Source of the DNA: Acutalibacteraceae bacterium
GTDB lineage: Bacteria > Actinomycetota > Coriobacteriia > Coriobacteriales > UMGS124
Length of the DNA: 64,000 bases
Direction of reading: 5' to 3'
Assembly: GCA_963619535.1 (NCBI GenBank)
Contig: CAVEWV010000004.1
Span: 1,983-65,982 of the forward strand
Position numbers and translations under genes: made by a program. Of the stretch, positions 27,501 to 44,882 are shown piece after piece; position 1 is the stretch's first letter; each line of letters begins with the position of its first letter. The notes below the pieces were generated by a model. The model was given only the letters and a program-made list of their open reading frames with translations. It searched no databases and was not told where the DNA came from.

Positions 27501-30500
27501 GGTGGAGGAGGGCGTGAACCAGGGCGACGACAGCCCCCTGACCGACGGGCAGAAGGACGCCTTCGGCACCGACGCCACCGCTTGGACCGTCACCGTCCAG
27601 GTGAGCGACGACGGCGAGGGCCAGCTCCACGCCAGCGTCTCCTACAGCAAGGACGGCGGCGAGGGGTCTTCCGAGGCGCCCACGTTCACCAACGCCTACA
27701 CGCCCGCGAGCGCGACCTATGAGGTCACGGCCAGCAAGACCATCACCTCCACCAACGGCGGCGCCCAGCGCACGCCCGAGGACCAGGAGTTCAGCTTCGT
27801 GCTGACCGATGCCGGCAACGACCTGGACGACGGCACGGCCACTCCCATGCCCGACGGCTCGACCTTCCCCGAGGACGGCACGCCTGCCGCGAAGCTCGCG
27901 TACAACGGGCCTGCCGACGAGGACGGCGTCGCGGCGGTGGCGTTCGGCCAGATGACCTACACGCGCCCGGGCACCTACAACTACACCGTCGCGGAGCAGG
28001 AGTGCGACAGCGACACCGTCACGTATGACGCGACCGTCTTCGGCGTGACCGTGACCGTGACCGACCAGGCCGGCACGCTCGTCGTTCAAAGCCGCACCTA
28101 CAAGCTCGACTCCGCCGACGTCGACGCGGCCGTGGCCTTCGACAACACCTACACGCCCGTCGCAAGCGACGAGGTCGTGCTCGGTGCGACCAAGGTGCTG
28201 GAGGGCTCGCGCCCCGAGGCGCTGGCCGAGGGCGAGTTCACCTTCGCCCTGTTCGCAGGCAGCTATGACTCGGCCGACGCGCTGAACGCCGAGGGCGTCG
28301 AGCCCCTCGCCACCGCAAGCAACGCCGCGGACGGCTCGGTTGCCTTCGATGCCATCACGTACGACACGGCCGACACCTACGAGTACACCATCGCCGAGCT
28401 TGGCGCCGACGGCCTCACCTGGGCGGGCGGCGGCGTCGCCAACGGCGTGACCTATGACGCCTCCATCCACCATGCCGTCGTCACCGTGACTGACGAGGGC
28501 GGCAAGTTCGTTGCCTCCGTCGCCTACGACGACGCGGCCGAGCAGCCCGTCTTCACCAACTCCTACAGCGTCACGGGTACGGTGAGCGCAAGCGCCTATG
28601 TGACCAAGACCGTCGTGGGCGCGGACAACGCCAACGGCTCCTTCACGTTCGCCCTGACTCCCAGCAAGGACTACGGCGACGCGGTCAAGGTCGCCGACGG
28701 CGAGGGCGCCCTGGTCAACCTCGGCACCGGCAGCCTTGAGGCCGTGGTGGACCAGCAGCTCGCAGACGGGCAGACCTCTGAGGCCGTCGCCTTCCCGCAG
28801 CTGACGTTCACCGCGCCCAGCCCCGAGGGCGGCTACACCTTCACCGTCGCCGAGACCTCTTGGGACGAGTCGTACTGGACCAGCAGCACCGGCACCCGCA
28901 GCCTCACCTTCTATGTGCTCGACGACGGCAAGGGCGGCCTGGTTCTCTCCGGCGACGCGCAGGGCACGACGCCCTTCAGCGCCGACGACGTCACCAAGGC
29001 CTTCACCAACACGCACGACTCCAGCACCGACTCCAGCGTGACCGGCGCCGTCAGCATCAAGAAGACGCTCTCCGGCCGTGCGCTGACCGAGGGCGAGTTC
29101 TCCTTCGAGCTGCGCTATGCCGGCAGCGACGAGCAGCGCGCCTACCTCGAGGGCGACCTCGACCAGGTGCGCAGCAACGTCGCGGACGGCACCGTCGCCT
29201 TCGACACGATCACCTTCAAGAACGTCGGCACCTATGCCTTCGAGGTCGCCGAGCTGGGCGCCGACGGCGGCTTCGCCACGGGCGGCGTGTCGGGCAACGT
29301 GACCTACAGCACCGACGTCTATGACGTCGTCGCCACCGTCACGCGCGGCGCCGACATGCAGTACCAGCTCGTCTGGTCCATCACCAGGCAGGGCTCCGGC
29401 TCGCCGGCATCCCAGGCCACCTTCAGCAACTCCTATGCCACGGTTGCCTCCACGGACGTGGTGATCGAGGGCTCCAAGGTGCTCCACGGCAGCTCGTTTG
29501 ACGCCGAGGCCGTCATCGAGAAGGTCAAGCAGGAGCAGCAGGACGCCGACAGCAGCAAGTCTGCCACCGATGCCGACAAGAGCTCCGACGCGAAGACGGA
29601 CTCCGTTGACGCGGACAAGGACGCGACCGACAAGAAGACCGAGGACACGACGGGTGCCGCCGATAACGGCTCCGATGCGTCCAACGGCGGCGACGGTGCG
29701 GATGCCGGCACTGATGCCGACGCCGACAACGGAACCAACACGGACAACGGCGCTGACGCCGACGGCAGCACCGACGACGGCACGGTAGAGCCCGACAACG
29801 GCGACGGCAACGTCGATGGCGGCTCCGATGCCAATGCCGATGCCAGCACCGACGGCGGCTCTGAGCCCGACGCAACGACGGTGGACGGCGACGAGCCGAG
29901 CGCCGACGACAATGCGAGCACCGATGACTCGGGCCAGACGGCCGAGGCCACCGACGACGCGCAGGACGCCGACGCCCAGGCAGGCGAGGAGCAGGTCGCC
30001 CAGGTCGACGAGCCTGCCGCGGAGCAGCAGGTCGACGAGGGCGCCGAGGCCCAGCAGGCCGCCAGCCAGGCCATGCTTGTCGATGACGGCGTCGTGATCT
30101 CGGCCTTCTCGCTTGTCGAGCCGAGCGTCGCCAACGCCGACGAGGCAACCGACAATACGGAGGCCGACCAGGCGCAGGGCCAGGCCGTCGACGGCTCCGA
30201 CGCCCAGGCCGACACCGCCGGCCAGCAGGACGACACGAATTCCGACGCCGACGCCAGCCAGCAGGACGGCACCGGCGAGTCGGGCGATACTGACGGCACC
30301 TCGACCGACGCCGACCTGCAGGCAAAGATCGACCAGGCCCTCGAGGAGGCCCGTGTCGCGGCTCGCGGCACTGACCGCGCAATCGAGGCGGGGGAGTTCA
30401 GCTTCACGCTGACGTTCGCCGGTCGCGACGACCTCGTCGTCGGCACGGCGACCAACGGCTCCAGTGAGGCCGGCCAGGCCGCAAGCGTCGTCTTCCCGTC

Positions 30501-32127
30501 GCTGCACTTCACCACCGAGTACAACGAGGGCAGCCTTTCCTCCTTGCCTTGGCTCGTCGAGCAGGGGCTTGCCGCGGCCGGCGTTGACTCCGAGGGCCAT
30601 CCCACCTACACGCTGCAGTTCACGGCCACCGAGGACACTGACTCGCTGCCCGCGAGCATCACGCCCAAGGTCGCGACCTATGCCGTCAGCGTCATGCTCA
30701 CCGACGACCTGGCGGGCAACCTCACGGCCAACGTGACGTACCCCGACGGTGGCCTCACGTTCGAGAACTCCTACGACGAGGCCGTGGTGCGCGTCCAGGG
30801 CGTCAAGGCCTATGAGGGCGGCACCCTGAACGGCGGCGAGTTCACCTTCGCCATCTATCCCGTTGACGGCGGCCCCATGCCCACGAAGGCCTCTGCCACC
30901 AATGACGCCTCCGGCACCGTGGACTTCGGCGAGATTCTCTTCGACGCCGAGGTCAGCGGTCTGGCCGAGGCGGGCAGCCGCAGCTTCACCTATGAGGTCG
31001 TCGAGGACGTGACTGCGGCGTCCGGCACCCAGTACGACCTTGAGAACAAGTACTTCACCGTCACGGTGACGCGCGCTGAGGACGGCACGTTCTCCGCGAG
31101 GTGCGAGCCCTCTTCCGGCACGGCGCTCTTCACTTTCAAGAACTCCTATGTGCCCACGCCGACCGAGGACGCGGTGACGTCGCAGCTCAGCATGACCAAG
31201 ACGCTCATCGGCCGTGCGCAGGCTGCCGGCGAGTTCTCCTTCGAGATGTACGAGCTCGACAATGCCGGCAACCGCGTCTCCGACGCACCTGTGGCCACGG
31301 GCACCAGCGCCGCCGACGGCACGGTCACGATGTCTGAGATTCAGTTCACGCACTCCGGCGTCTATCGCTACGAGGTGGTCGAGCTCGCGGGCAGCGCGGC
31401 CGGCGTCTCGTACGACGCGCATGTCGCCCGCGTCCGCGCGACGGTCGGCACTGACCTCTCGGATGCGTCCCTGCTCGTGGAGTGGAGCGTGGAGGAGGGC
31501 AGCTCGCTTGACTTTGTGAACACCTACACGCCCGCTCCCACGTCCACGCAGGTCGTACTGACCAAGGAGCTTACGGGCGCCGAGCTCAAGGAGGGCCAGT
31601 TCACCTTCACGCTCACTGCCGAAAACGGCAAGACGCTCACCGCCACGAACGCTGCCGACGGCACCGTCACCTTCCCCGAGCTCACGTTCACCCAGGCAGG
31701 CACGTACACCTATACGGTGGCCGAGGTGAACGACGGGCAGGCGAACGTGACGTACGACGCGGACTCCGAGCGCACGGTTGTGGTGGAGGTCGCCGACGAC
31801 GGCCAGGGCCAGCTGTATGCGAGCGTCTCCGGCGACAGCCTGGCGTTCAAGAACAGCTATACCGAGCCCACGCCCGATCCCGATCCCACGCCCGACCCCA
31901 CGCCGACGCCGAAGCCCGATCCCACGCCGACGCCCGATCCCACGCCCACGCCCGAGCCTACCCCGACGCCCGACAACAAGGGCACGGACGACAAGTCCAC
32001 GACGGGGCAGATCGTCAAGACGGCCGACGAAACGCCTGACGCCGGCCTGCTTGCCGGCATGGCGCTCACCGGCGCCGGCTTGACCGCTGCGGGCGCATAC
32101 GCCCTGCGGCGCAGGACGCGCGAGTAG
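15508..32127 (+). CDS. Giant cell-surface adhesin with Cna-B-like and pilin-type isopeptide repeat domains, 5539 aa
   Basis: Track ORF 15268..32127, started at ATG 15508. Signal peptide ATFLAMAFCVLMAFGLVGGPVAGAQAAQA. Many K.W.D....RP Cna-B-like units and SpaA-like units (LVET.AP.GH). About 15 Spy0128/FctA-like units (GEFSF.L ... G.V.F..ITY...GTY.YTI.E ... TFTN.YTP). Acidic D/A/T/G-rich region ~29530-30330. PT linker 31861-31975. C-terminal VKTAD, then a hydrophobic helix, then RRRTRE. Confidence 0.85.
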   Translation: MDASNMNRTTTGRPAGVSHARQVRATFLAMAFCVLMAFGLVGGPVAGAQAAQAGREAQDFTGSASFTTVWADNNDTDGARPSTESMLAEGGYVIQWRAAGSADWATFDTDTAPAELNLTDEQLDAIRASIGMTVSGQNYVYSIGKLPTRYVDTDESGKQTTVNLEYRVIREGEVQGYSKLAEGAYDGAFDSTYYGDDASIECLQRLEDVTYRVVVNDGSGALQDTYTVDEWNAAFGKDQTESVHLDNEVISTNPVADETSTISVSGNVVTITTPRPKYYPDNSPLDYSMQHDAAATLQTADDGTIDYYQVGYSNANVPNHSSDISAAYSGGSLSLTHAGTVDFQATKKWYDDGATDRPATSYSLYRYSTNGGSVATAAQVAGATGEYVEFTLTSEQNVAAGEDGIELGALLPEDVQCNLAKYDPDGYPYVYFLREESVDGYKRIAASLTEDENHNVTVAYDKANYDSATLVDGKWTSVETGDSASENSVVIYNDGVISNVRVGSTVPQLAKSWVAGAYQDQLSDVTVSMQLMRHAKSDGMEPDPTTGLYAIDATWEAVGNPVELTGWLAGNMAQTVSSSVARYDLMGHEFVYQWCEVNVSGPSVQSFTLYTEGAYAGITGTAVLTLKDEQGQDETVVFEGYYTANVAEDGTVTDKTIVNAYVSQTIARLTKYWNVDGELVTGIANPYGSKTIEVQNEDGTTSIVTFPDSLTFSLYRNEELYFNGLVADGVVEDDWTDVDVDGDGTVDFKYRESSPWTLDVDCLAKYDEAGSKYLYYIAENPGEGFSASFGFQATTDTYDFTKSDGTENNRVINLSTVTNSPYPGEGTTVRVSKEWVDDGNNTGRNAVLVEVYAKSDVVKSDGTPVTDSEGNPIKAGDSIATVTLEDANGWYNKVGISAGGGIYLPEGQEAPEGFEPGNGNGFYYGVREVSNDNYVTVQLADGKVYDRAGNDVSDVYGDASLSPWADGTWRLITNEDAVADEGGYVYDISYSIRTDFFGSKVVVTNRRVGLVDVTLSKVWVDEGADPAKRPTAYYQVMGEQDGIFYADDEGNVYAQLPESPTAYPLYLDAAHTEHLTVDMLANGSEDFSSMLRIQITEQNSDAFTIYGLPKFDYEGKAFNYSASEALGEDAQGTDYAGMGSSSSAKFNSYLQHSDKRTYTFSNGRTGTKDVTFFTRWYDEYVKEGLNQRPDVYLTLYTIDADGNPQVVSGYERVKWVSDSDWDDEHTDAVYNQRATIHGLPKYDSNGKEIVYYATITPSVNYSTYHDVLDYQSIEFGTSSDDSGNVKWDQADEEVAKAQSKYQGVGDNETTALREDGTFIFRIDNSVVVQGTKIWTNLPGDYSGNLPDISIFVQQRLQGANALDEGWSSLVVIKADTADGGITGSGYEVEHAQAGAALVDESGDQVVAWTTLSGNSTDSKTKVFTLSYYGENSADQTEGVRLPMYDEYGHRYEYHAHEIMDGLIQDESGNPEGGFTLDELIASIEGGNDTYAGPTVISSGIGTSFRVHNTFLDTRQQGQLSVRKLITDLPKDAKLADVTMTLYRKASDGSWTKVGQQTLTPTANLSGGTQAELTFTFTDLAIYDPTGTRYEYKVVETATNGYETSCAAGYVTVEDDLVAGYEVEGLHAYKDGETTEYEDGIAATYLNRYTGDDVSISGAKVWADRNNAFGLRPDAITLKVTRTYQDGTVDTSLGSEGEVVLQSTDPDASNYLAWNYTAGTSKWTYTISNLLKWAPDGKAWKYTVIEAEVPEHYSCASKGGTVSVDRSTTVPDIRNNILGTVSFTKEYKDNSDQWSQRPTTYYQLQSRMRAEGGEWTQWSEANDTFTRLGTPLVEAKLDPNNQYCPMGHILPDGNTNTIVRLQGNRSDWRFTWYRLPCVAEHDGTTYEIAWRVVEVRVVYDINAADADRIVVDLVNPGDDTNGTVTYVDADGNTYKPYSTSQSTKTNGTNTTSSITNTLVSTELKVTKVWDDDDNAWVTRPGTTTSASAWSSTFVIQRSSDNGATWKWFTKYGEAVADSAALDASGNPNASLLSVTVSGKAGTSSSTATFENLPAYDPKTGQAYVYRAVEVVKGSYSVVDGQQVVEGNSKLVTVDVTNAEQNAEQTFTNKLQTVVLQGTKAWLEVGKGLLFDDTDPLASGLTFELQRTTDANPSESSAWQKATKTVDGTQVSIQPAWTKGEDGTDEGFSDVWTFAYENLPANDQSGKAYTYRVVEVDGSQPGYYAVYPNGNVTQVDAASATQTNATILNVPTMFTFDKLDLADGKSGVTGDDGTPNSLNGVTFEISDSKGDVVATWSRSNDGTEQVTYSDDTNVSGESVYVAGLAAGTYTVHESAVPSGHIAVADFKISITAQGVVSKAGGSGASSVTLEASASDEEQQLGIKKFRLTASDAVVRGSFSIQKFYKNRNAEYPVAGMTFDLYVNPSSESNGTLIATGLTTDANGAWTSAGNTAVTYDSDAMSHAFGDLAKYYVTANDGLPEGSYRLVETGTSAYTVKAQGQTFDFKIAVNGGYAQPALVKVRAENTEFTSQAFLYKVDADDEDLFLDGATFSLYWIAEGAAEGTDYKLVASGLVSGKMYEVKPNMSGVVNAQGAKLGTGELAIFNLKKGAYKLVETAPAPGHTLAADETARTVTFTVTEGSDGEGQVSPETLTLTNTKTVLALAKTSQDGTLLTGAEFTVAPAHGSAFADGTTAAKAFVVGQDGTLTIAGELVASNSYVVTETATPAGFKLCGESITVSLDASGNVSANVPTGSAWSFSASSDAVAATLTLADQPTSLVLAKVSASDGAALDGATFTVTPLEGSTFAGGSTDARDYAVGSDGTVTITGELVAGMSYQVAETTAPHGYIRSAVSVVVSLDATGAASVNVSGKTGWTFDGSAAKLTLSDVLATTSAGLNADKYIDGRDWASHDSFSFSLVYADTDEVVATATAAYNQADPSASGQMTFDPALTFTVAELEALVEQGRAVYDEDASTWDIPYTIVEADTAIPGITKAQDTPVMLRVTQAVDGSLSAAFFGYNAEGQFDYSQVVASFGITNPFTDASVTAAPRVHKYISVAGVNMTDELEAELRAQYAGKFSFSMVAQGATLSYANGDNVNLSADDIAATLPAESATATNDASGNVQFGDITITRALLRGASEAVFRYTVSEDEGTLAGITYNDGVYTLNVKVTDTAEGGLQVVDITFDKDASTFDTDICFTNIFEPETVSAAPSAVKAVQPSEGNSFDLAGGEFSFTLHAVSAPQDVDVADDFPDQSKTNGNAGDAEVAQFDSLTFSVAGTYVFQVTEDALDKGNLTETQQAAFSHDDTVYTITYEVATDYETGKLYIKSVTSAPAAAEDVAGSDQVTFTNAYTPAPVTYNPGATKTITSLNGGAKRVPQAGEFTFALVDPSDDASSPMPEGSETGSGTPAKYVTNGAANDKGIAAVEFGTITYTQPGTYNYLIVESLGTDDTITYDASVFKLTVTVTDEGGKLAVQAQTSKRGNDTQQVEAAFNNLYTPEPSDDVVLGATKTLTGTRPNALAEGEFTFGLFAGSYESADALNAEGVEPLDTAGNAADGSVAFDAITYDVAGTYTYTIAERGADGTTWAGGGTKDGVTYDATIHLVSVVVADVDGKLVAGVAYDGASELPAFTNAYAAATATAAPVAHKAVQPSEGNSYELVGGEFSFSLKAVSAPEGVDVASFADQAKTNGADGDASLVKFDQMSFTVAGAYTFSLVEEGVNQGDDSPLTDGQKDAFGTDATAWTVTVQVSDDGEGQLHASVSYSKDGGEGSSEAPTFTNTYTPASLEILPDATKVLSGRDVQALEDDEFTFGFFEGELSVEALNGGEVQPLSTATNAANGKIYFDTVTFDRPGTYTYTIAELGADGATWAGGGTKDGVTYDATPCYLTITVADSKGELVIAQATDTKGGEQIDVPTFTNTYAAATATAAPVAHKAVQPSEGNSYELVGGEFSFSLKAVSAPEGVDVASFADQAKTNGADGDASLVKFDQMSFTVAGAYTFSLVEEGVNQGDDSPLTDGQKDAFGTDATAWTVTVQVSDDGEGQLHASVSYSKDGGEGSSEAPTFTNAYTPASATYEVTASKTITSTNGGAQRTPEDQEFSFVLTDAGNDLDDGTATPMPDGSTFPEDGTPAAKLAYNGPADEDGVAAVAFGQMTYTRPGTYNYTVAEQECDSDTVTYDATVFGVTVTVTDQAGTLVVQSRTYKLDSADVDAAVAFDNTYTPVASDEVVLGATKVLEGSRPEALAEGEFTFALFAGSYDSADALNAEGVEPLATASNAADGSVAFDAITYDTADTYEYTIAELGADGLTWAGGGVANGVTYDASIHHAVVTVTDEGGKFVASVAYDDAAEQPVFTNSYSVTGTVSASAYVTKTVVGADNANGSFTFALTPSKDYGDAVKVADGEGALVNLGTGSLEAVVDQQLADGQTSEAVAFPQLTFTAPSPEGGYTFTVAETSWDESYWTSSTGTRSLTFYVLDDGKGGLVLSGDAQGTTPFSADDVTKAFTNTHDSSTDSSVTGAVSIKKTLSGRALTEGEFSFELRYAGSDEQRAYLEGDLDQVRSNVADGTVAFDTITFKNVGTYAFEVAELGADGGFATGGVSGNVTYSTDVYDVVATVTRGADMQYQLVWSITRQGSGSPASQATFSNSYATVASTDVVIEGSKVLHGSSFDAEAVIEKVKQEQQDADSSKSATDADKSSDAKTDSVDADKDATDKKTEDTTGAADNGSDASNGGDGADAGTDADADNGTNTDNGADADGSTDDGTVEPDNGDGNVDGGSDANADASTDGGSEPDATTVDGDEPSADDNASTDDSGQTAEATDDAQDADAQAGEEQVAQVDEPAAEQQVDEGAEAQQAASQAMLVDDGVVISAFSLVEPSVANADEATDNTEADQAQGQAVDGSDAQADTAGQQDDTNSDADASQQDGTGESGDTDGTSTDADLQAKIDQALEEARVAARGTDRAIEAGEFSFTLTFAGRDDLVVGTATNGSSEAGQAASVVFPSLHFTTEYNEGSLSSLPWLVEQGLAAAGVDSEGHPTYTLQFTATEDTDSLPASITPKVATYAVSVMLTDDLAGNLTANVTYPDGGLTFENSYDEAVVRVQGVKAYEGGTLNGGEFTFAIYPVDGGPMPTKASATNDASGTVDFGEILFDAEVSGLAEAGSRSFTYEVVEDVTAASGTQYDLENKYFTVTVTRAEDGTFSARCEPSSGTALFTFKNSYVPTPTEDAVTSQLSMTKTLIGRAQAAGEFSFEMYELDNAGNRVSDAPVATGTSAADGTVTMSEIQFTHSGVYRYEVVELAGSAAGVSYDAHVARVRATVGTDLSDASLLVEWSVEEGSSLDFVNTYTPAPTSTQVVLTKELTGAELKEGQFTFTLTAENGKTLTATNAADGTVTFPELTFTQAGTYTYTVAEVNDGQANVTYDADSERTVVVEVADDGQGQLYASVSGDSLAFKNSYTEPTPDPDPTPDPTPTPKPDPTPTPDPTPTPEPTPTPDNKGTDDKSTTGQIVKTADETPDAGLLAGMALTGAGLTAAGAYALRRRTRE
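26394..27677 (+). repeat. Intragenic 423-bp perfect duplication at 861-bp offset
   Basis: 26394-26816 is identical base for base to 27255-27677, checked line by line. Near-identity extends about 15 bp upstream and 30 bp downstream. Modules are arranged A-B-C-A-C-A-B-C between ~25100 and 28560. Confidence 0.9.
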
Positions 32128-34875: not shown

Positions 34876-34952
34876 TGGTGGGCCCGACAAGGTTCGAACT
34901 TGTGACCTCCCGGTTATCAGCCGGACGCTCTGACCAACTGAGCTACGGGCCC
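34876..34952 (-). tRNA. tRNA-Ile (anticodon GAU), CCA encoded
   Basis: Manual cloverleaf. Acceptor GGGCCCG/CGGGCCC, D arm GCUC/GAGC, anticodon stem UCCGG/CCGGG with loop CUGAUAA, T arm ACAAG/CUUGU with loop UUCGAAC, 3' ACCA. Confidence 0.95.
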
Positions 34953-34991: not shown

Positions 34992-35308
34992 CGATTATTT
35001 GCAGCTAAGGCGATTATCCACAACTGAAACACAAATACACACATCGATACCCGGCAATGGCGGGGAAAAAGTCCCTGCGATTGAGTGGACTAGGGCCTTG
35101 CAGTCAACCCAGTTTCATTAGCGAGCAGATTCAAAAATGCACGTCACCGCGTGGAAATTGTGCTGTATACCGCAGCAAATCAAGTCATCGACAATGATTC
35201 CCGCCTCATTTCTGCCGTGCTCCTTAAAGGCGTAGTGTTGATACGGCTGTTGGCAATGCCGAAATTCTTTCTAAGGAGTAGGAATCCATCTTCAAGCGTA
35301 AATTGACA

Positions 35309-35338
35309 AAAAAGAGCCGACTGATCGGCTCTTTTTAC
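35309..35338. terminator. Bidirectional hairpin terminator
   Basis: AAAAAGAGCCGA ctga TCGGCTCTTTTT, with A/T tracts on both sides. It sits 83 nt downstream of the Abi-like ORF end. Confidence 0.7.
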
Positions 35339-35420
35339 AGCTATACGCTGTTGATAGAGTAAAGATACAGCCTTCCTGCCTTTTTGTCAAATGCAACCGT
35401 GTCAAATGCAAAGGCGACAA

Positions 35421-36101
35421 TCACACCTTCCGCAGATATTCCATGATACGTGCAAGCTTCTGCCGATCGCCGCTGCCCACGATTTGCATGTAACGATCGA
35501 CGCCCATATGGAGCTCAAAGGCCGAAAGCAGGCGCGTGCACCCTTGCATGAACGCCAGCGAAGGTCGCTTTCTTTTAGACAACCTCTCACGCAAAAGGGC
35601 GACGAGGAGCATGTAGTCGACAATGCTGTTGAATGCCGGCCGCACCGGAAGTGACAAGCGGGACTCCAGTACCTGGCCTGCAAGGGTGAGGTCCGGGCTC
35701 GCGGGCTTGTACATGCTGGCCTGGCTAAATCGTGCGTCGAACACCACCTGGTTGTGGGCGACCGCGTTGCGCAGGGGGCGAACGGACTCGACCAGTGCGG
35801 GCAGGAGGGCCGGGTTGTCGCCAAGAAGCCCCATGTCGTCGAGCGACCCCATCGCCGTGGGCGCAGGAACACACCTGCAAAGCAACGAGAGGTTACCCAG
35901 ACTAATGGTGCTCTCGGGCTTTGCATCGGTTTTGCACCCTTGATTTGCACTCATCGGCGCATGGCTGGTCTGGGCATGAGAAATCGGGTCCAGAGTATTG
36001 GTCAATCTGAGAATCGGCCGAAAGGCCAGGGGAGACAGCGCATCGGGCCTCAAGCAGGTCCGGCGGGCTCGTGGTGAGGTGACCGTCGCTTGAATGCGCA
36101 A
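35421..36101 (-). pseudogene. Abi_2 (AbiD/AbiF-like abortive infection) protein, apparently N-terminally truncated or degenerate
   Basis: The C-terminal two thirds carry SLGNLSLL ... VRPLRNAVAHNQVVFDARF, typical of the Abi_2 family. The first ~50 codons of the ORF look non-homologous (RARRTCLRPDALSP). An in-frame ATG at 35954 is a possible start of a shortened product. Confidence 0.5.
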
Positions 36102-36210
36102 AGGTTTGTCATATTAGTCTGTTAAATGAATCAAGCAACTAAGAATATTGAATATTACCTTGATAGAGTCGTTGATCACCAATGTAGCTCATCAGCCCAT
36201 TTGCACCTAT

Positions 36211-36271
36211 GGTGACAATTGTCACCATAACGGTTGAACTGGAACTATGCGAGGCGGTGACAATTGTCACC
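36211..36271. promoter_or_regulatory. Second pair of the 16-bp palindrome GGTGACAATTGTCACC
   Basis: Perfect copies at 36211-36226 and 36256-36271, centres 45 bp apart, 187 bp upstream of ATG 36458. Confidence 0.6.
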
Positions 36272-36457
36272 ACTATCGAACATATGGAGAGACTGTGCGC
36301 TAGCACCCGTTGGACGGTTGCATATTGCCAAATTATTAGAGCAAGTGAACAATACAAGTCAGCCGCACGATACACCCTCAGCGGTAGCGTAAGGTTGGTT
36401 TCTCTTTATTGGTCGGGTGGGCCCGAGGGTCCATCCCCAACAGAAAGGAGTGTCCCA

Positions 36458-36982
36458 ATGGATACTCGTATGGATCGCAGGTCGTTCCTCAAGAACGCCG
36501 CCCTGGTCGGCGCAGCCCTCGTCGCCGCCCCCGCGCTCCTGGGCGCCGTCGAGCCGCAGAAGGCGCTGGCGGATGGTGGTACGTGCACGTGCAACGTTTG
36601 GGTTAAGCCGACTGGTGCGCCTGCTATTGCCATTGGACTTGGCAATGTGGCGTATATGACTAACCCGAATACGCCTGGCAACGGTGGTTTCCCGACGAGC
36701 GCTGCTCAGGACAATGCTTCGTACACCGACAACGGCGATGGCACGTGGACTGTTACTATCCCCCTTGTCAACACGATGTTTACTTTGACTTCCTATACGG
36801 ATGACGGTTCCCAGGAGTGCAAGATTGAGAGCGGTGCTTATTCTGATGGCCACTACACTTCTCTCGTTGTAACCCTGCCGGCTGTGTCCGCCACCTACAC
36901 TTATGCTGCTACAGAGCATGCTTCTTATGCTCTGTACGAGGGCGATAAGAGGTGGAATATTAACATCCAGCTGTCTCTTTAG
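36458..36982 (+). CDS. Tat-secreted single-module protein of unknown function, 174 aa
   Basis: Track ORF 36209..36982, started at ATG 36458 (AAAGGAG 8 nt upstream). MDRRSFLKNAALVGAALVAAPALLGA twin-arginine signal. The mature part resembles the repeated module of the downstream giant protein (NVAYMTNPNTP ... IPLVNTMFTL). Confidence 0.75.
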   Translation: MDTRMDRRSFLKNAALVGAALVAAPALLGAVEPQKALADGGTCTCNVWVKPTGAPAIAIGLGNVAYMTNPNTPGNGGFPTSAAQDNASYTDNGDGTWTVTIPLVNTMFTLTSYTDDGSQECKIESGAYSDGHYTSLVVTLPAVSATYTYAATEHASYALYEGDKRWNINIQLSL

Positions 36983-37111
36983 TATCTGCTATCGAGGCAC
37001 ATCGGGCACTTCCTGGATGCGCATCGATAGCAACAGACTTCCGTAACGGGTGCGCCCGCCGTGCTACAGCGCGGTGGGCGTATGCGGTTCTTGTGCGACA
37101 GGAGCACATTA

Positions 37112-40100
37112 ATGAAATCAAGCCAATTGCAATGCAAAGGTGCGGCATTGGGGCAACGTTTTCTTGCTGTCTTCATGTCTGCAGCCATGGTGTTCTCAAC
37201 AATTCCATTGCCCGCATATGCCGATGATACTATTGATTCTGATTTTGCAGATCAGGCGGCTGTTGTCGAGCAGGGGTCCCTTGAGAATGAATTCAATCTA
37301 CCTGAAAATGCTGCCGAGCAAGCCGAGACGGTAAACGAAGAAAACCCCGAGGCGGTTGACACAGCTGAACAGGAAATTGCTGCTGAATCTGATGTTGCGC
37401 AATCTGGTGTAACAGATGAGGGAGGGACCGCTGCTCCTTCTGCCGCTGATGAAGCAACTGCTTCTTCTGCGGGGAAAAATGGTGGGGATTTTGAAATCGA
37501 TGCTTCGGACGATGGCGAATCAACGTTAGTTTGCACAATAAATGGAGCAGAGACGACAGCCGCCGATGCCGTTTCGTCTGTTTTCGAATATTGTGACACT
37601 GAAGGTGTTGCGCCAACTTACGTTGCTGTGTCTATCACAACGTCTGACGATACGCTCAAAGAGCAGCTGGCCAGCGCAACAATCAAAGTCGAACATAACC
37701 CAGCGAGCTTTAATGTTCAAGCTGTACATGAAGCTTTAAATAATAACTTTGATGCAGAGGTTCAGTCTGACTATTTTACTGTTAGCCTCATTAATCAAAA
37801 TGGTGAAATAGCGGTTAGCCAAAATGATGTCACGCAAATACAATTGACTGTTCCCGTAACAACTAATGCCTCTGTTTTTCGATTTGATGAAAATGCAGGT
37901 TTGAGTCAGCTCTCCACCCTTTCGTTTGACGGCGAGAAACTTGTGGTAGAGGCGGATAAACTCGGTACGATTGCGGTAGCTAAAGACGTTTCTCTTCCTG
38001 TGCCGCAGGAAGAGTCGGCTTCAGATTCCAACGACGCAAGTAGCGACTTATCGTCTCCGGTTTCTCCCTCCTACAACGCCGTCGCCAACCTCGTGGCCGG
38101 CTACGACGTCGAGGGCGAGAAGTTCGACCTGTACCTGAACGCCGCCACCGACGGCAAGACGATGGAGCAGCCCCGCGAGTCGGCCAACGCCGTGGCCGTG
38201 GCGGGCGACGGCTTCGTGACCCTGACGGTGCCCGTCGAGCCCTCCTACGCCCAGGCCGGCCTGGCCCTGGGGTCGCTGGGCGCCCCCGACGGCGCCGGCG
38301 TCGAGGCGTCCCTGTCCGGCGACGGCCTGACCGCCACGTTCAGGCTGACCGAGCGCGCCGACTCCTACGAGCTCTCCGGCTCGGCCGACTACTACGGCTA
38401 CGCCTCGTCCTCGATGCGCCTGGACGTCTCCGTCCCCTCCGAGGTGCTCGACGAGGCGTTCGGCTGCGTTGCTCCTGTCAGTGCTTCGACGGGATTTGCT
38501 GCAGGTGCCTATGCAGTAACGGCTAATCTTTATGCACTCGATGATGGGGGAAATCCCGTTTTTCTGTCGTCTGTTCCTCCTGACGGGGTGGGTATCGGCG
38601 CGTCCACGGATGAAAACGGTCTCATTCTTAATGGTGCCCGTTCACTGACACGCTATGACGGCACCACTACGCTTGATGTCTGGTTGGACGAATCCGTCTC
38701 GTATGACTCTTTGGGTGCGTCATCAAATGTCGCAAGCGCGCAAGTTCTTGATGACCAATACAGCCTGTTCCATGCTTCTTTCGTTCTTTCAGACTTGTCT
38801 GGTCGATATGACTTCAGCGGCGCTTCGGTTACAAAGAATGGCGTAACGTATACCCGACTGTTTCTTCGCGTTGATTATGCAAATGCTACCGATTTGTATT
38901 CGTCCAACGTTGCCCCGAACAGTGGGAATGACGACCTTGCGCCTGGCACATATGAAGTTACGGCAAATCTCTATGTTCCCGGTGAGTACAATCCTATTTT
39001 GGTTGGTTATAACGCATATATGGGCAGTCCCGAATTTCCGCCCACGCGGCCGGTGTACCCCGGCTTTACTCCTGATGTAGAGGAAGATCTTGGGTGGACA
39101 TACGCCGGTACGTTGACGGTAAACGATGACCATACCGCAACGCTTGACTTGCCTATTAACTGCACGGCCTTCACTCTTCAAAGCGTTGGTGGTTCTGAAA
39201 ATGCCAGGGTAACCGATGTCGAATGGGGAACAGATTCCACGGTTTTGGGAATCCTGTCTAAAAATGGTATCAATGGTTATATTACGCATCTCACTTTCTC
39301 ATTGGATGATTTAAGCACCGGGTTTTACGTCTTTACGGACTGCTCGGAGTTTCCGGTTCCGTTTGAGCAGGTATGGAATCTCCCTCTCTATCTCAAGGTT
39401 GACCTGGGTAATGCGCATACTCCTGGCGAGAATCCGGACAATCCTGATGAACCTGGAAATTATGAGGAAACGCTCACTGATGCGTCCGGTGCCATTTCGC
39501 TCGATTTAACCGCTTCTTCTGCTGTTGTTGCGAACAAGTGGAACGGTGCTACTCTCGTCGTAGAGCGCATCGTTTCAGGTGAGGATTACTCTAAGGTAAA
39601 TAGTGAAATTGCCTCTCTGTTTAGCAGGGATGACGCCTCGTTCGCAATGTATGACATACAGGTTCTCGATGCTGATGGCCTGCCTCTTGACCTCTCTGCT
39701 TTCGATTCAGCTGTGTATCGCCTGATCGATACACGTGGCGTTTTCGGCATTCCTGAAAACCAGCCAATATATGATGCCCTTTATTACTTTACATATAATG
39801 GCGAGACGCTTGAGCGTTTTGCGGGTAATAACAGCTTCGCGAATGGTTTTGGTTCAGCTGTTGTCACCGACTGGAATGCTACGGAATCCGGGAGTTTTGT
39901 CCTTGTCTACCCCTATACATATGCAAGTGGGGTAGCTAGCAAAGTCGGACTACCTGTTTCGTTGGAGCTTGCGGATGTGACGGGCGTGTCGGTTGTCGGT
40001 TCGCTCACTGATTATCAGAGCGCAATCAAATCTGATGACTTTGGTTCGCTCAAATTGCTCTCGAGCGTTGAGTCCAACGGTGACAAGGTTGAGAAGGCCC

Positions 40101-43100
40101 AATCGGCTCTTGCTGAACTTGGCAGCATGCCTTACGACAAATGCAATGTGAAAGCAATCGCAACAGCAATAGCCAGGATCGATGGGTCGTATATCCAGAC
40201 ATGGGCGTATTCCAGTGTTACGGATACATACGTCTACAAAATCCCCGTGGATACGCCTGATTCGACCATTTATTTGATAACTGTCGACTCGGCGGGTGAT
40301 AGTAGCTGCCAGCCAATTCCCGAGTCTAATCTGGTTATAACTAATGATGGAGCCGAGATTTCCTGGACGATGCCTCGCAATTGGGATGAAAAAGTCCAGG
40401 TAATCGAGCTATTCAAGGCATTGTACCGTGGCGCCACAGGCGACCCGAACAATGAGGGCTATGCATACTACGCCGTTGTTTCTAACGGGGAGTCTGACAA
40501 GATTGTTCCCACTGAACCAGTTGCCACTTCGGACCTGATTTACTCAGGTGCAGCCCAGACTGGTGTTATCGCAGGCGAGGGCTATACGCTTTCAGGTGAC
40601 TTCCAGGCAACTGATGCCGGCACTTACAAGGCGCTTGCCACCCTGGATGCTGGTTATGTCTGGAAGGACGGCTCCAAGGACGCAAAGACCATCGAATGGT
40701 CTATCGCTAAGGCAATGCTGACGGCCACCTATGCGGGCGAGCAGGTCATGCGCGGAGTAGAGCCTGGCTATGCGGTGAGCGTCGAGGGCTTCGTTGACGG
40801 CGAGAACGTTACCAACGCCGATGAATTTGTTATGCCCGCAATTGCCGACAAGGACAAGCCTGCCGCATCCGAGTTGGTGGCTGGCTTCTTCAAGGAGCTT
40901 GCTCCCTCAGGCGGTTCTGCAAAGAACTACCAGTTCAAGTATGTTGGCGGCACGTTGAAGGTCGTTGCCGCCGCGGGTGACCTCAAGCCCGGTACGTACA
41001 CGGTGACGGCTAACCTGTTCGTTCCCGGCGAGCTCAACGCGGTGCTGGTGGGCGTGAACGCGTACCTTACCAACCCCAGCACCCCTCTGACCGACGGCAG
41101 CGCTCCGACCAAGCCTGTTTCGGACAACGCGACGTTGACGGTTGCTGAGGACGGCACCATCACGCTTGACCTGGATGTTGTGAACCCCGTATTCACACTC
41201 CAGAAGATTGGCGGTGGCACCAATGCCCAGGCCACCGTTACGGGCAAGGGCGACTCCGTTGGAGCTTCCGACGCCCAGTACAAGACGCGCATCTCAAAGC
41301 TCTCCATCAAGCTGCTCGATTCTACGGGCACCTATATCTTCTCAGACTGCCTGGAGTACCCCACGCTTCTCAACCAGGTGTGGACGGTGCCGCTGACGCT
41401 CAATGTTGACTTCTCCAACGTTGACACGGTTGAACCCGCTCCCGACCCGACGCCTGACCCCAAGCCCGATCAGCCGGTGCAGGTTGCCGTGCCTGCTGCT
41501 AAGGCAAATCTGACCTACAACGGCAAGACCCAGACCGGCGTTGCTGCAAGCAAGGCCTACACGCTCGTGGGTGCTACGGCCAAGGATGCTGGCACTTACA
41601 CGGCCACGGCCACGCTGAACGAGGGTTACGAGTGGGCCGACGGCACGACTGGCGCTAAGACCGTCACCTGGACCATCGCCAAGGCCAAGCTCACGGCCAC
41701 CTATGCAGGGGAGACCATCGTCGAGGGCGGCGAGCCTGCCTATGCCGTGGATGTGACGGGCTTTGTGGGCGGCGATACCGTTTTGACCGCCGAAGGCTTT
41801 GAGGCCCCCTCTGTCTCCAAGGTTGCTGCCGATCAGCTCGTTGCGGGCAAGAGCTTCACGCTCACCCCTGCGGGCGGTGCGGCCAAGAACTACTCTTATA
41901 TATATGTTGCAGGCACGCTGAAGGTGACAGCCCCGGTGGGCACCATCGCCCCCGGTACCTATCAGGTCACGGCCAACCTGTACGTGCCCGGCGAGCTCAA
42001 CTCCGTGCTGGGCAAGAACGCCTATCTCACCAACCCCTCCACCCCCATCACCGACGGCAACGCGCCCCTCACGCCTGTCTCCGACAACGCCAAGCTCGTG
42101 GTGCGCTCTGACGGCAGCCGCGTGCTCGTCATCCCGGTGGTGAACCCCGTGTTCACGCTCCAGGGTATGGGCGACGGCGCAAACGTGAAGGTGCTTGGCA
42201 GCGTGCGCGGCAACGACGTCGTGGGCTCCACCCAGGTGAGCGACCGTATCACCGAGCTGTATGTGGAGCTGGGCGACGATTCCGGCTCCTACCAGCTGGG
42301 CGACTGCGTGGAGTTCCCCACGCTGCTCAACCAGACCTGGAACGTGCCTCTGCGCATCTCGGTGGACTTCGCCTCGATGAAGCAGCTTTCGAACAGCTCG
42401 ACCATCACCGTCCCCGGGCAGAACGGTACCGACAAGCCCGGCAACGGCACCAACGGCGGTTCCGACAACAACGGCGGCAACGGCTCGAACAACAACGGCA
42501 ACCAGGGCAACAACTCTGGCACCAACAACGGCGCCAACGGCGGCGGCCAGGGCAACAACGGCACGGGCGACAACGCAAACAACGGCGGCAACAACGGCCA
42601 GGGCACCACGGGCAACGTCGACAACTCCGACGGCAGCTATCGCCTCACCGCCGGCACCTACACGGTAACCGCCAACATCTGGCTGTCCGACCGCTCGGCC
42701 ACGGGCCTGCCCCTCATGCCCTACCTCACGAGCGGCGACTTCCCGCCCATGTACCCCGTCACCGGCAACGCCACGCTCACGGTGGACGAGTCGGGCCACG
42801 CCACGTTGCGCGTGCCTATCGCCATCCAGAGCAAGGTCATGACGGTGAGCGGCATCTCGGGCCTGGACATCGTGGGCACCGAGTACTCCGGCGGCTACGT
42901 GAGCGCCGTCACCATCGACCTGGGCACCATCACCGACATGAGCGGCGTCATCACCCAGAGCTGCTCGGCCACCATCGTGATGGGCAGCCTGGCCTCCACC
43001 ATCTCGGGCATCACGGGCTCGCACACCTGGCCCGCCACGTTCCAGGTGGTGTTCACGGGCGTGCCGGTGAGCAGCAACGCCGGCAGCTCCTACGACTGGA

Positions 43101-43453
43101 GCAAGGCCGCCGCAGCCGCAGGCCTCACGGCCGGCGTGGGCGAGCTTGCCGCCGAGGGCACGGGCGCCGCTGCCGACCTCGAGTTCCTCTCGGTTGCCAC
43201 CAAGGCCGCCACGCAGGGCGCCATGCACGCTGCTGCCGGCGCGGCTGAGGCTAGCGTGGCCGAGAACACGGCCGCCGACTTTGTGGGCACGGGCGTTTCG
43301 GGAGTGCTCACCGCGCTCGACCCCGACGCCGCAAGCGGCACCGACGCCACGGCGGCCCTCGCGCTGGCTGCGGCCCTTACGGGCGGCGAGGTTGCGACCG
43401 CCACGGGCGCGGAGGCGTTTGAGGCTGCCTTCTTGGCTGGCAAGGCTGCCTAG
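37112..43453 (+). CDS. Large secreted multi-module protein (five VTANLYVPGE-type modules, two MBG-like domains, Asn/Gly-rich linker), no recognisable anchor, 2113 aa
   Basis: Track ORF 37061..43453, started at ATG 37112 (AGGAG 7 nt upstream). Signal peptide FLAVFMSAAMVFSTIPLPAYA. Module starts at ~38504, 38945, 40991, 41954 and 42653. MBG-like LTATYAGE..V.G.EP.Y.V.V.GFV.G ... NY.(F/Y).YV.GTLKV at ~40720 and ~41690. N/G-rich run 42410-42640. Ala-rich C-terminus without LPXTG or a TM helix. Confidence 0.8.
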   Translation: MKSSQLQCKGAALGQRFLAVFMSAAMVFSTIPLPAYADDTIDSDFADQAAVVEQGSLENEFNLPENAAEQAETVNEENPEAVDTAEQEIAAESDVAQSGVTDEGGTAAPSAADEATASSAGKNGGDFEIDASDDGESTLVCTINGAETTAADAVSSVFEYCDTEGVAPTYVAVSITTSDDTLKEQLASATIKVEHNPASFNVQAVHEALNNNFDAEVQSDYFTVSLINQNGEIAVSQNDVTQIQLTVPVTTNASVFRFDENAGLSQLSTLSFDGEKLVVEADKLGTIAVAKDVSLPVPQEESASDSNDASSDLSSPVSPSYNAVANLVAGYDVEGEKFDLYLNAATDGKTMEQPRESANAVAVAGDGFVTLTVPVEPSYAQAGLALGSLGAPDGAGVEASLSGDGLTATFRLTERADSYELSGSADYYGYASSSMRLDVSVPSEVLDEAFGCVAPVSASTGFAAGAYAVTANLYALDDGGNPVFLSSVPPDGVGIGASTDENGLILNGARSLTRYDGTTTLDVWLDESVSYDSLGASSNVASAQVLDDQYSLFHASFVLSDLSGRYDFSGASVTKNGVTYTRLFLRVDYANATDLYSSNVAPNSGNDDLAPGTYEVTANLYVPGEYNPILVGYNAYMGSPEFPPTRPVYPGFTPDVEEDLGWTYAGTLTVNDDHTATLDLPINCTAFTLQSVGGSENARVTDVEWGTDSTVLGILSKNGINGYITHLTFSLDDLSTGFYVFTDCSEFPVPFEQVWNLPLYLKVDLGNAHTPGENPDNPDEPGNYEETLTDASGAISLDLTASSAVVANKWNGATLVVERIVSGEDYSKVNSEIASLFSRDDASFAMYDIQVLDADGLPLDLSAFDSAVYRLIDTRGVFGIPENQPIYDALYYFTYNGETLERFAGNNSFANGFGSAVVTDWNATESGSFVLVYPYTYASGVASKVGLPVSLELADVTGVSVVGSLTDYQSAIKSDDFGSLKLLSSVESNGDKVEKAQSALAELGSMPYDKCNVKAIATAIARIDGSYIQTWAYSSVTDTYVYKIPVDTPDSTIYLITVDSAGDSSCQPIPESNLVITNDGAEISWTMPRNWDEKVQVIELFKALYRGATGDPNNEGYAYYAVVSNGESDKIVPTEPVATSDLIYSGAAQTGVIAGEGYTLSGDFQATDAGTYKALATLDAGYVWKDGSKDAKTIEWSIAKAMLTATYAGEQVMRGVEPGYAVSVEGFVDGENVTNADEFVMPAIADKDKPAASELVAGFFKELAPSGGSAKNYQFKYVGGTLKVVAAAGDLKPGTYTVTANLFVPGELNAVLVGVNAYLTNPSTPLTDGSAPTKPVSDNATLTVAEDGTITLDLDVVNPVFTLQKIGGGTNAQATVTGKGDSVGASDAQYKTRISKLSIKLLDSTGTYIFSDCLEYPTLLNQVWTVPLTLNVDFSNVDTVEPAPDPTPDPKPDQPVQVAVPAAKANLTYNGKTQTGVAASKAYTLVGATAKDAGTYTATATLNEGYEWADGTTGAKTVTWTIAKAKLTATYAGETIVEGGEPAYAVDVTGFVGGDTVLTAEGFEAPSVSKVAADQLVAGKSFTLTPAGGAAKNYSYIYVAGTLKVTAPVGTIAPGTYQVTANLYVPGELNSVLGKNAYLTNPSTPITDGNAPLTPVSDNAKLVVRSDGSRVLVIPVVNPVFTLQGMGDGANVKVLGSVRGNDVVGSTQVSDRITELYVELGDDSGSYQLGDCVEFPTLLNQTWNVPLRISVDFASMKQLSNSSTITVPGQNGTDKPGNGTNGGSDNNGGNGSNNNGNQGNNSGTNNGANGGGQGNNGTGDNANNGGNNGQGTTGNVDNSDGSYRLTAGTYTVTANIWLSDRSATGLPLMPYLTSGDFPPMYPVTGNATLTVDESGHATLRVPIAIQSKVMTVSGISGLDIVGTEYSGGYVSAVTIDLGTITDMSGVITQSCSATIVMGSLASTISGITGSHTWPATFQVVFTGVPVSSNAGSSYDWSKAAAAAGLTAGVGELAAEGTGAAADLEFLSVATKAATQGAMHAAAGAAEASVAENTAADFVGTGVSGVLTALDPDAASGTDATAALALAAALTGGEVATATGAEAFEAAFLAGKAA

Positions 43454-43610: not shown

Positions 43611-44747
43611 ATGCAGATTTCGATGAAGGCCGCAGCCGGCGTGCTTGTGCCGCTTGCGCTTGCAGGCACCTGCCTTGCGTGCGCCCCCACGGCTGCCTGG
43701 GCCGATGCTGCCGCGGAGCCTGCGGTTGCGGCCGCTGAACAGGCCGCCGAGGCCGCCAGCACCGATGAGGCCGCTGCAACCGATGAGGTGTTTGCCGATG
43801 GCGTACTGACGTTTGGCGGCATGCAGGTGACGCTGCCCGCCGACATGCAGGTGCGCGTGGCGGGCACGCTTGCCAGCGCCGTCAACGCGGAGGGCACGCT
43901 TACCGCAAGCGTGGAGGACATCTCCTTTGCCACGCTGCCCGACAAGGCCGACCTGGCCGCCGCGTTTGCCGACGCCGCCAACAAGACGGTTACCGGCTAT
44001 GCCACGGCGTCCGTCACCGACAAGGGCACGCACAGCCTGGCAGAGGGCGTGACGGCCTACGTGTACGAGCTCGACGTGACGGGCCCCTACACTGCCGTAA
44101 AGAACGCCGACGGCACCACGACCGCCTCCGAGGTGGGCCCCGAGGGCCACTGGACCATCACGCAGGAGTATGTGGCGCTCAAAGACGGCGGCTTCGCCCT
44201 CGTGCAGGTGGCAGTGTCTGAGACGGCATCCGATGAGGACGTGGCTGCGGCAAAGGCGGCCGTGGAGTCCATCGCGATTGCGCCTGAGAAGGACGCGTCC
44301 GATGACGCCGCCGCCAAGGCCGACGACGGCCGTGCGCATGCGGGCAGTTTCACGTTTGAGCTGCCCGAAGGCCTGCGCGAGGCGTCTGATGAGCTCGTGT
44401 GGCTCGGCACGACCGACAACGTGCTGGTGGAGGCCACAGGCGCGCTCGTGGAGGCCGAGGACGCCAAGACGCTGGACGACGAGGGCACGAAGGCCCTGTT
44501 CGAGGCCGCGGCCGAGGGCATGGGGGCCACATTCGAGGGCTCGAGCGTTCGCAAGGCGGGAGACACCGACCTCACGGTGGGCGTGTTCTCGCTGCCGAAC
44601 GGCGCGGAGACCTACGAGTGCCTCATCGTGCTGGTGCCCGTGGAAGACGGAAGCATCGAGGGCCTCACGGTTGTGTGTGACCCAGCGGCTGCGAAGGCGT
44701 GGGCCGACAAGTTGGACACGATGTTCTCGTCCATCGAGGTGTTGTAG
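43611..44747 (+). CDS. Secreted hypothetical protein, 378 aa
   Basis: AGGAG upstream of the start. Signal peptide AAGVLVPLALAGTCLACAPTAAWA. Acidic, Ala-rich mature protein with no motif I recognise. Confidence 0.65.
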   Translation: MQISMKAAAGVLVPLALAGTCLACAPTAAWADAAAEPAVAAAEQAAEAASTDEAAATDEVFADGVLTFGGMQVTLPADMQVRVAGTLASAVNAEGTLTASVEDISFATLPDKADLAAAFADAANKTVTGYATASVTDKGTHSLAEGVTAYVYELDVTGPYTAVKNADGTTTASEVGPEGHWTITQEYVALKDGGFALVQVAVSETASDEDVAAAKAAVESIAIAPEKDASDDAAAKADDGRAHAGSFTFELPEGLREASDELVWLGTTDNVLVEATGALVEAEDAKTLDDEGTKALFEAAAEGMGATFEGSSVRKAGDTDLTVGVFSLPNGAETYECLIVLVPVEDGSIEGLTVVCDPAAAKAWADKLDTMFSSIEVL

Positions 44748-44847
44748 CGGAACCTGGCCTGTCGCGTTCTCCGAAGGCCCATGTGCTCCAGCACGCATCG
44801 CCTTCGGACGCCTTGCAGGCCAGAACCCGCGCTTTTGAGGATTGAAC

Positions 44848-44882
44848 CGCCGGGCGCGGGGGGATGCCCCCGCGCCCGGCGG
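44848..44882. other. 16-bp perfect GC hairpin / inverted repeat
   Basis: CGCCGGGCGCGGGGGG (atg) CCCCCGCGCCCGGCGG, with no U-tract on either strand. Confidence 0.6.

Follow-up and report, generated by a model that had tools for sequence, protein, structure and literature searches.

Paired palindromes as predicted CRP/FNR-type operators of a split Coriobacteriales gene cluster

What might two pairs of nearly identical palindromes control when one pair precedes genes for an importer and the other precedes genes for secreted proteins? The stretch of DNA analyzed here (64,000 nucleotides, hereafter the window) carries two exact copies of the 16-mer GGTGACAATTGTCACC at 36211-36226 and 36256-36271 (pair 2), with a center-to-center distance of 45 bp and with the promoter-proximal copy ending 187 bp 5' of the ATG at 36458. 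Pair 1 includes an exact copy of GGTGACAATTGTCACC at 6734 and a one-mismatch copy, GGTGACAAATGTCACC, at 6776. An earlier note on this DNA gave the coordinates, counts, and spacing of the 16-mers along with the 187-bp distance, all of which were correct on rechecking.

Palindromic sites and the genes that they precede

With up to three mismatches to GGTGACAATTGTCACC allowed, the window holds four matches in total (6734, 6776, 36211, and 36256), all of them intergenic. A looser scan of the window for GTGA-N6-TCAC returned exact intergenic matches at the same four positions only. The 16-mer has the form GGTGA-N6-TCACC (GGTGAYWWWWRTCACY) and so contains the symmetric GTGA-N6-TCAC arrangement of a CRP/FNR-type operator; a CRP-type site is TGTGA-N6-TCACA. 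Core DNA motifs are conserved across the CRP/FNR family (PMC12531629), whereas in a second article on this family (PMC3590769) we found nothing that bears on the motif of the sites. The four sites are as follows, where designations beginning with L are contigs from relatives.

36211-36226: pair 2 distal site, GGTGACAATTGTCACC; present at the same place in L002, L004, L006, L084, L088, L090, L091, and L094
36256-36271: pair 2 promoter-proximal site, GGTGACAATTGTCACC; center 84.5 bp before a -10-like hexamer
6734-6749: pair 1 site nearer the regulator gene, GGTGACAATTGTCACC
6776-6791: pair 1 site nearer the importer promoter, GGTGACAAATGTCACC

The genes that surround the two pairs code for a putative regulator, an importer with an associated activase-like protein, and a set of secreted proteins.

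5857-6579, minus strand: regulator of 240 aa with a cNMP_binding-like barrel and a putative Crp-type helix-turn-helix (HTH), divergent from pair 1
7138-10081, plus strand: Tat-signal binding protein, NitT/TauT-type permease, and ATPase
10395-15209, plus strand: double acyl-CoA dehydratase activase-like protein of 1604 aa (TIGR00241, 265 bits, two stretches)
35421-36101, minus strand: Abi_2-like remnant directly 5' of pair 2 (weak match, E = 0.007), at the position of the regulator gene in relatives
36458-36982, plus strand: Tat-signal protein of 174 aa (Tat-174), a stand-alone copy of the giant-protein repeat domain
37061-43453, plus strand: giant secreted multi-domain protein of 2130 aa with MBG_2 domains and Tat-174-like repeats
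43611-44747, plus strand: secreted or lipoprotein-like protein of 378 aa with no assigned family; the binding-protein gene lies directly 3' of it in relatives

The twin-arginine signal of Tat-174 matches TIGR01409 with 22.4 bits against a cutoff of 16.7. Between the importer-activase genes and the Tat-174 locus, positions 15268-32127 code for a repetitive surface protein of 5619 aa with a C-terminal membrane-anchor-like tail.

Conservation of the sites and of their distance to a promoter

The earlier note proposed a search for the paired-site arrangement in front of orthologous loci, and we carried this out with 12 regulatory regions, taken from metagenomic contigs of relatives and from one Coriobacteriales MAG. 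Homologues of Tat-174 that are 46-79% identical, all unnamed, were traced to contigs L002-L007 and L090-L095, whereas L088 came from a pattern scan of metagenomes and L084 from a scan of genomes. A pair of sites 41-45 bp apart precedes a Tat-174 or binding-protein orthologue in all 12 regions, a count that includes one region with a degenerate second site (L092/L093). The spacing is 44-45 bp at Tat-174 regions, where the pair is still present at orthologues with as little as 51% identity. In L084 the pair precedes a binding-protein orthologue. In L001, two copies of AGTGATTTAAATCACC that are 41 bp apart end 155 bp from the regulator ATG, which is the same distance as in the window, and the half-sites are kept while the center is changed.

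Among the 23 sites of the 12 regions, GTGA and TCAC are invariant and the center is variable. Positions 6 and 11 show C/T and G/A variation, respectively, and vary independently of each other, such that asymmetric variants (for example GGTGACAATTATCACC) disrupt the would-be sixth pair of a stem in about half of the sites. Such independent variation of the halves is in keeping with a protein that recognizes two half-sites but not with an RNA stem. Both window loci have the center CAATTG, which is replaced in one lineage by TTTAAA. The latter center occurs only at the regulator/binding-protein locus of L001 and in the first site of the L092/L093 Tat-174 locus. These contigs derive from the same sequencing project (ERZ272459xx) and likely come from one organism. 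Thus, the site variant follows the lineage at the two loci alike, as it would if they had a factor in common.

A strict paired pattern used to scan metagenomes yielded one relevant locus (L088), and the other match is an unrelated repeat array (L089). A degenerate paired pattern used to scan genome contigs proved too permissive, with 79 of 80 loci being unrelated, among them enterobacterial CRP-site pairs and tandem arrays of Prevotella, and L084 alone being relevant. The 14-mer core GTGACAAATGTCAC or GTGACAATTGTCAC forms tandem arrays with a 22-bp period on many contigs of the uncultured Prevotella RUG759 (L014, L021, L025, L029, L036, L037, L051, L056, L058, L060, L079, L082, and L086). In addition, the AT-rich, unrelated contig L089 carries about 20 copies of TTGGTGATAAYTATCACCAAC at 700-1480. 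These are unrelated repeat families that have the same palindrome.

The sites are also located at a fixed distance from a predicted promoter. In all seven regions that were measured (both window pairs, L001, L002, L004, L006, and L084), the center of the proximal site lies exactly 84.5 bp from the hexamer AACAAT, which is -10-like and sigma-70-like and is preceded at 17-18 nt by TTGCCA, TTGCAA, TTGAAA, or TTGCAT. Pair 2 belongs to a module that we call type B, with 45-bp spacing and a AACATATGGAGA box, and pair 1 to a type-A module that it has in common with L001. The elements of the two control regions are as follows.

36239-36242, plus strand: CTGG box between the sites, 13 nt after the distal site; conserved, with CAGG in L006
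36279-36290, plus strand: box AACATATGGAGA just 3' of the proximal site; conserved in the type-B module only
36325-36330, plus strand: pair 2 -35-like hexamer TTGCCA; TTGCAA, TTGAAA, or TTGCAT at the same position in orthologous regions
36348-36353, plus strand: pair 2 -10-like hexamer AACAAT; invariant in all regions, with a predicted start near 36360
36415-36437, plus strand: leader hairpin GGGTGGGCC-CGAG-GGTCCATCCC just 5' of the Tat-174 Shine-Dalgarno sequence, also present in orthologous leaders; seven pairs by RNAalifold, three with compensatory changes
6635-6663, minus strand: predicted regulator promoter TTGATT-17 nt-TAGGGT; kept in L001 at 323-351
6844-6873, plus strand: predicted importer promoter TTGCAT-18 nt-AACAAT, with the -10 beginning 84.5 bp from the proximal center; kept in L001

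The other regulator type has its own promoter-like elements (TTGCAC-like-17 nt-TAAAGT), and the distance between the pair and the regulator promoter differs by hundreds of bp among regions. This variable distance, together with the fixed 84.5 bp to the operon promoter, indicates that the sites are placed relative to the operon promoter. Autoregulation through a fixed geometry is not supported, given the variable spacing between the pair and the regulator promoter. The constant 84.5 bp is also not a by-product of recent duplication, since the 76 bp that follow the proximal site are only 24% identical between the two window copies, compared with 25.5% expected at random.

Two origins other than protein-binding sites were weighed against these observations. 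Intergenic regions of the window are richer in A+T than its genes, and an AT-rich palindrome might therefore have arisen four times in such DNA by chance. This reading is already refuted: among 100 dinucleotide-preserving shuffles the mean was 0.22 matches and none reached four or more, which bears out the view of the earlier note that four 16-mers are unlikely by chance in 64 kb, and the sites are kept at orthologues down to 51% protein identity. It is very improbable that the palindromes instead belong to a mobile or repetitive element (as terminal inverted repeats, a MITE, or iterons) or form RNA hairpins. An IS110-like transposase gene is indeed found 145 bp away from the L084 pair, the pair has neighboring Abi_2 genes in both L002 and the window, and the core recurs in the Prevotella RUG759 and L089 arrays of unrelated organisms. 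However, the similarity between the window copies ends at the sites, as matches found with blastn-short between the pair 1 and pair 2 regions are restricted to the 16-18 bp sites. Moreover, the promoter distance and the orientation to orthologous genes are constant across the 12 regions, and the genes on the other side differ. The earlier note named a mobile or repetitive origin as grounds for abandoning its proposal, and our check of this point found flanks with random-level identity and no further copy with up to three mismatches in the 64 kb. The RNA-hairpin reading was rejected on account of the asymmetric site variants, and an Rfam search at the sites was negative.

Three other features of these control regions stand apart from the paired sites. 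Type-B regions have in common a direct repeat, GAATAT(T/C)GAATA(T/C)T, which lies about 55-65 bp 5' of the distal site (36150-36166 in the window, about 8497 in L002, 9688-9700 in L004, and 2427-2441 in L084) and could be a site for a second factor. In relatives, the binding-protein leader carries a long hairpin with compensatory stem changes and the conserved loop CGCCTGGGGAGCG (17550-17672 in L002, 18850-18960 in L004, and 2690-2800 in L084). The window leader at 6880-7137 lacks that hairpin and instead has a 15-nt direct repeat, CGCGCATGCGCAAGG, at 6895 and 6951. An Rfam search of both window leaders returned no family and only chance-level miRNA models.

The adjacent regulator and the split cluster

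The gene divergent from pair 1 codes for a candidate DNA-binding factor of the CRP/FNR family. Its N-terminal barrel (residues 45-122) matches PF00027 with 41.5 bits (cutoff 27.5), and the structures of a PKA regulatory subunit and of FNR match as well. The C-terminal HTH matches PF13545 (HTH_Crp_2) with E = 7e-6 and 26.3 bits, just under the Pfam cutoff of 27. There is a weak structure match to the FNR-type regulator 5cvr (residues 47-221, E = 3e-3), and among the named NCBIfam models FtrB, Fnr, and FixK are best, all of them far below cutoffs. Six homologues have the conserved helix D(E/A)K(T/A)LSRKL, which reads DEKTLSRKL in five and DAKALSRKL in L002. The L002 regulator may be a drifting or retuned copy, and several Abi_2 genes lie between it and the pair (features at 1254-2132 and 3183-7853 of L002).

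The arginine that binds the cyclic phosphate is replaced, with PSPVT in the window regulator and SCPVD in type-B homologues compared with PRAAT in PKA. In addition, no cysteine is conserved across the six aligned homologues, whereas FNR proper has a conserved cluster of cysteines for a [4Fe-4S] center. We thus rejected CRP/GlxR proper because of the replaced arginine and FNR proper because a conserved cysteine cluster is absent, and the signal appears to be neither cAMP nor an FNR-type iron-sulfur cluster. The position equivalent to the arginine (residues ~99-104) is serine in the window and L001 proteins (PSPVT) and a conserved cysteine in type-B regulators (S/V/A-CPVD), where it is a possible ligand or redox-sensing residue.

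Regulator homologues with the conserved helix adjoin the pair in L001 and, in divergent orientation, in L004/5, L006/7, L088, L090, L091, and L094/5. The regulator gene is adjacent in eight of the 12 regions and lies within 6.4 kb in L002. Few close relatives were detectable by sequence search (two matches), and a scan of genome contigs with the regulator protein found no relative. The only close relative that could be retrieved is the L001 protein, which is 59% identical and has a neighboring methyltransferase gene in common with the window. Regulators encoded next to Tat-174 in relatives are 39-42% identical to the window protein. Exact-protein look-ups for the window regulator, Tat-174, and P0001 returned no record.

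Gene order in relatives suggests why the same sites would precede two different loci. In L002, L004, and L090 the regulator gene is followed by the pair and then by the genes for Tat-174, the giant MBG_2 protein, a ~380-aa protein, the binding protein, and the permease, and neither L002 nor L004 has a second pair with up to three mismatches. The window giant protein is 62% identical to those of both L002 and L004, the 378-aa protein 71% and 67%, the binding protein 83% and 78%, and the permease 77% and 72%, respectively. The products of window positions 7138-10081 are 78-86% identical to the L002 and L004 copies located 3' of the 380-aa gene and to the L084 copies behind the pair. The latter contig belongs to a MAG of uncultured Coriobacteriales that was sampled from a Hadza gut. 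In it, the same module and the genes for the binding protein, permease, and ATPase are joined directly, with the IS110-like transposase gene noted above beside them. A second split example is found in L092/L093, with genes for Tat-174, the giant protein, and a 421-aa protein and with no regulator or importer gene nearby. Since the importer genes directly follow the Tat-174, giant, and 380-aa genes in relatives, the two window loci are the halves of a single conserved cluster, which this genome carries in split form, each half with its own predicted operator-promoter module.

This arrangement alters one part of the proposal made in the earlier note, namely that a shared regulon links unrelated functions. 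The two pairs very probably are sites for one kind of DNA-binding factor that would co-control the loci, as proposed, but the functions are not unrelated, given that L002, L004, and L090 carry the genes as one cluster.

The type-B half in the window has additional features that hint at a separate ancestry. From 35000 to 41000, a stretch that extends over the Abi_2 remnant, pair 2, and Tat-174 and through the 5' half of the giant gene, the G+C content is 48-59% compared with a background of 63-76%, which hints at horizontal acquisition or recombination. This low-G+C stretch is bordered on the left by a tRNA gene (34879-34952, minus strand), and L002 has intact Abi_2 genes where the window has the Abi_2 remnant. 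The type-B module at pair 2, together with the 39-42% regulator identity, suggests a type-B lineage as the source of the Tat-174 half, which would have been acquired or recombined without its own regulator. The resident regulator would be expected to serve both pairs, since the helix and the sites are the same. As a separate observation, positions 44744-44882 of the window, about 140 bp after the 378-aa stop, are an inverted copy (76% identical) of L002 17406-17549, which is the segment between the 380-aa and binding-protein genes. The inverted copy includes the GC-rich hairpin CCGCCGGGCGCGGGGG-GATG-CCCCCGCGCCCGGCGG and may be a small inversion or rearrangement scar at the split point.

Collectively, these findings make it probable that the palindromes are CRP/FNR-type operators of the 240-aa regulator, within a conserved promoter module that drives both halves of the cluster. 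Each 16-mer is predicted to bind one dimer of a CRP/FNR-family protein, most likely the product of the gene next to pair 1 (5857-6579). Two dimers would be located 41-45 bp apart and 5' of a sigma-70-like promoter (-35 TTGNNN, 17-18 nt, -10 AACAAT), centered near -96.5 and -140, where they most likely would activate transcription in response to a signal other than a cyclic nucleotide. The same module would drive both the secreted capture half (Tat-174, the giant protein, and the 378-aa protein) and the uptake/processing half (the Tat-signal binding protein, the NitT/TauT-type permease, the ATPase, and the double activase).

The sign of control and the identity of the factor at pair 2 each permit another reading. 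By the usual -12 convention, and with a start that is predicted rather than mapped, the site centers fall at about -96.5 and at about -138 to -141. Classical class I CRP positions are -92.5/-93.5 or -103.5, and the activating helical face for upstream CRP sites corresponds to about -61.5, -72.5, -82.5, or -92.5. The predicted position of -96.5 does not quite coincide with any of the classical class I positions, and we therefore favor an upstream activator by a modest degree only, as a preference rather than a result, on the basis of the predicted promoter. A class II (-41.5) architecture was rejected because no -10-like hexamer is found about 30 bp after the proximal center. It is possible, if less probable, that the regulator is a repressor and that a promoter overlapping the proximal site (-35 GTGACA with -10 TATGGT or CATATG) is occluded or looped out by way of the sites. 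A promoter scan at pair 1 does find GTGACA-18 nt-TATGGT, in which GTGACA is the left half of the proximal site, and a conserved box lies 3' of the proximal site in every region. However, the -10 candidates in type-B regions lack the conserved final T or have spacers of 18-20 nt, and a better conserved -35/-10 pair is present at the invariant 84.5 bp downstream. Repression would bear on the sign of control alone, not on the identity of the sites.

A different concern with the single-regulator model is that regulator identity is only 39-42%, compared with 62-83% for the other cluster proteins, such that pair 2 could be served by a closer paralogue whose gene lies outside the window. The regulators indeed form two groups (59% versus 39-42% identity to the window protein), and the location of the pair 2 type-B module in low-GC DNA near a tRNA gene and the Abi_2 remnant suggests acquisition from a type-B lineage. 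Nevertheless, we consider it unlikely that a type-B paralogue serves pair 2 and that the 5857-6579 regulator serves pair 1 only. The recognition helix is conserved in both regulator groups, and the identical sites at both window loci make cross-binding expected with either paralogue. The 64 kb show no second regulator gene, and the position that it has in relatives is occupied here by the Abi_2 remnant.

Relationship to known systems and possible function

Paired upstream sites and a CRP/FNR-family regulator in a divergent control region constitute a known arrangement, and the mechanism proposed here is conventional. Tandem or upstream CRP sites are established in divergent control regions of Escherichia coli (acsP2 and malE-malK). 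As with E. coli CRP, the sites have symmetric GTGA-N6-TCAC sequences, the predicted regulator is dimeric with a cNMP-binding-like barrel and a putative C-terminal HTH, and two sites several helical turns apart lie 5' of a sigma-70-type promoter between divergent genes. However, the PSPVT sequence in place of PRAAT (PKA) makes cAMP an unlikely ligand, the recognition helix is E--SR (FNR-like) whereas that of CRP is RE--R, and the predicted -96.5 is not canonical class I. Furthermore, the protein appears to be a local regulator dedicated to the cluster, whereas CRP is global. The best sequence and structure matches, which are weak, are to the FNR/FixK/FtrB branch, and the helix carries the E--SR motif; however, no conserved N-terminal cysteine cluster is present here, and the half-site is GTGA rather than TTGA.

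Actinobacterial Crp/GlxR proteins are global cAMP-responsive regulators with the site TGTGA-N6-TCACA. The site type and the phylum are alike (Coriobacteriales belong to Actinomycetota), but Crp/GlxR regulators are global and respond to cAMP, whereas the window regulator is found beside this cluster only. What appears to be new is a cluster-dedicated regulator with a predicted effector that is not a cyclic nucleotide, in a cluster that is uncharacterized. The earlier note knew of no description of the link between the importer and the secreted proteins. In the searchable literature we found neither a regulon nor a binding motif described for this regulator or for the cluster, and nothing relevant on Coriobacteriia with NEAT or on the combination of activase, ABC, and NEAT.

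The gene content follows the logic of the Isd/NEAT heme capture systems of Firmicutes, which comprise a secreted hemophore, surface receptors, and an ABC importer, in that a small secreted single-domain protein, a giant surface protein that repeats this domain, and an ABC importer would belong to one regulon. Residues 61-173 of Tat-174 are a stand-alone copy of the domain that is repeated in the giant protein. In an AF2 model of Tat-174 (pLDDT 81.7), the top Foldseek PDB matches are NEAT domains, although these are weak (E = 0.02-0.1, TM 0.3-0.49). There is no Pfam NEAT match for 18 homologues at E values up to 5 or for the window proteins, and the conserved Tat-174 motif is E153-(H/Y)154-x-x-(Y/F)157 rather than the heme-ligand motif YXXXY. 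NEAT membership by sequence was rejected on these grounds, which leaves a NEAT-like fold, or "hemophore-like capture", as a weak lead from modeling. Other differences from the Isd/NEAT systems are Tat rather than Sec export, an importer of the NitT/TauT type (not the type used for heme) rather than FecCD/IsdEF, the presence of a double activase, and CRP/FNR-type rather than Fur control.

One speculative interpretation, which we regard as improbable at present, is that the module is the dedicated CRP/FNR-type switch of an undescribed nutrient-capture pathway of Coriobacteriales. A hemophore-like Tat-174 would pass a ligand to the NitT/TauT-type importer for reductive processing in the cytoplasm, driven by the double ATP-dependent activase, and the regulator would sense the ligand. 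The giant surface protein, which has the same domain, would join Tat-174 in ligand hand-over, and the ligand might perhaps be a tetrapyrrole or another redox-active compound.

The main value of the predicted module is as an entry point to an uncharacterized Coriobacteriales system. It offers a concrete and testable assignment of a regulator to operators for this order, and it shows that an ABC importer and double activase are evolutionarily tied to a module of Tat-secreted and giant surface proteins. The whole set is thereby open to study as one system with one switch, and a new uptake pathway of gut Actinomycetota might come to light if the effector and substrate were identified.

The binding protein encoded at 7138-8367 also carries a twin-arginine signal (TIGR01409, above cutoff), and Tat export is unusual for an ABC binding protein. 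Twin-arginine signals on both this protein and Tat-174 predict the export of folded, possibly cofactor-loaded proteins.
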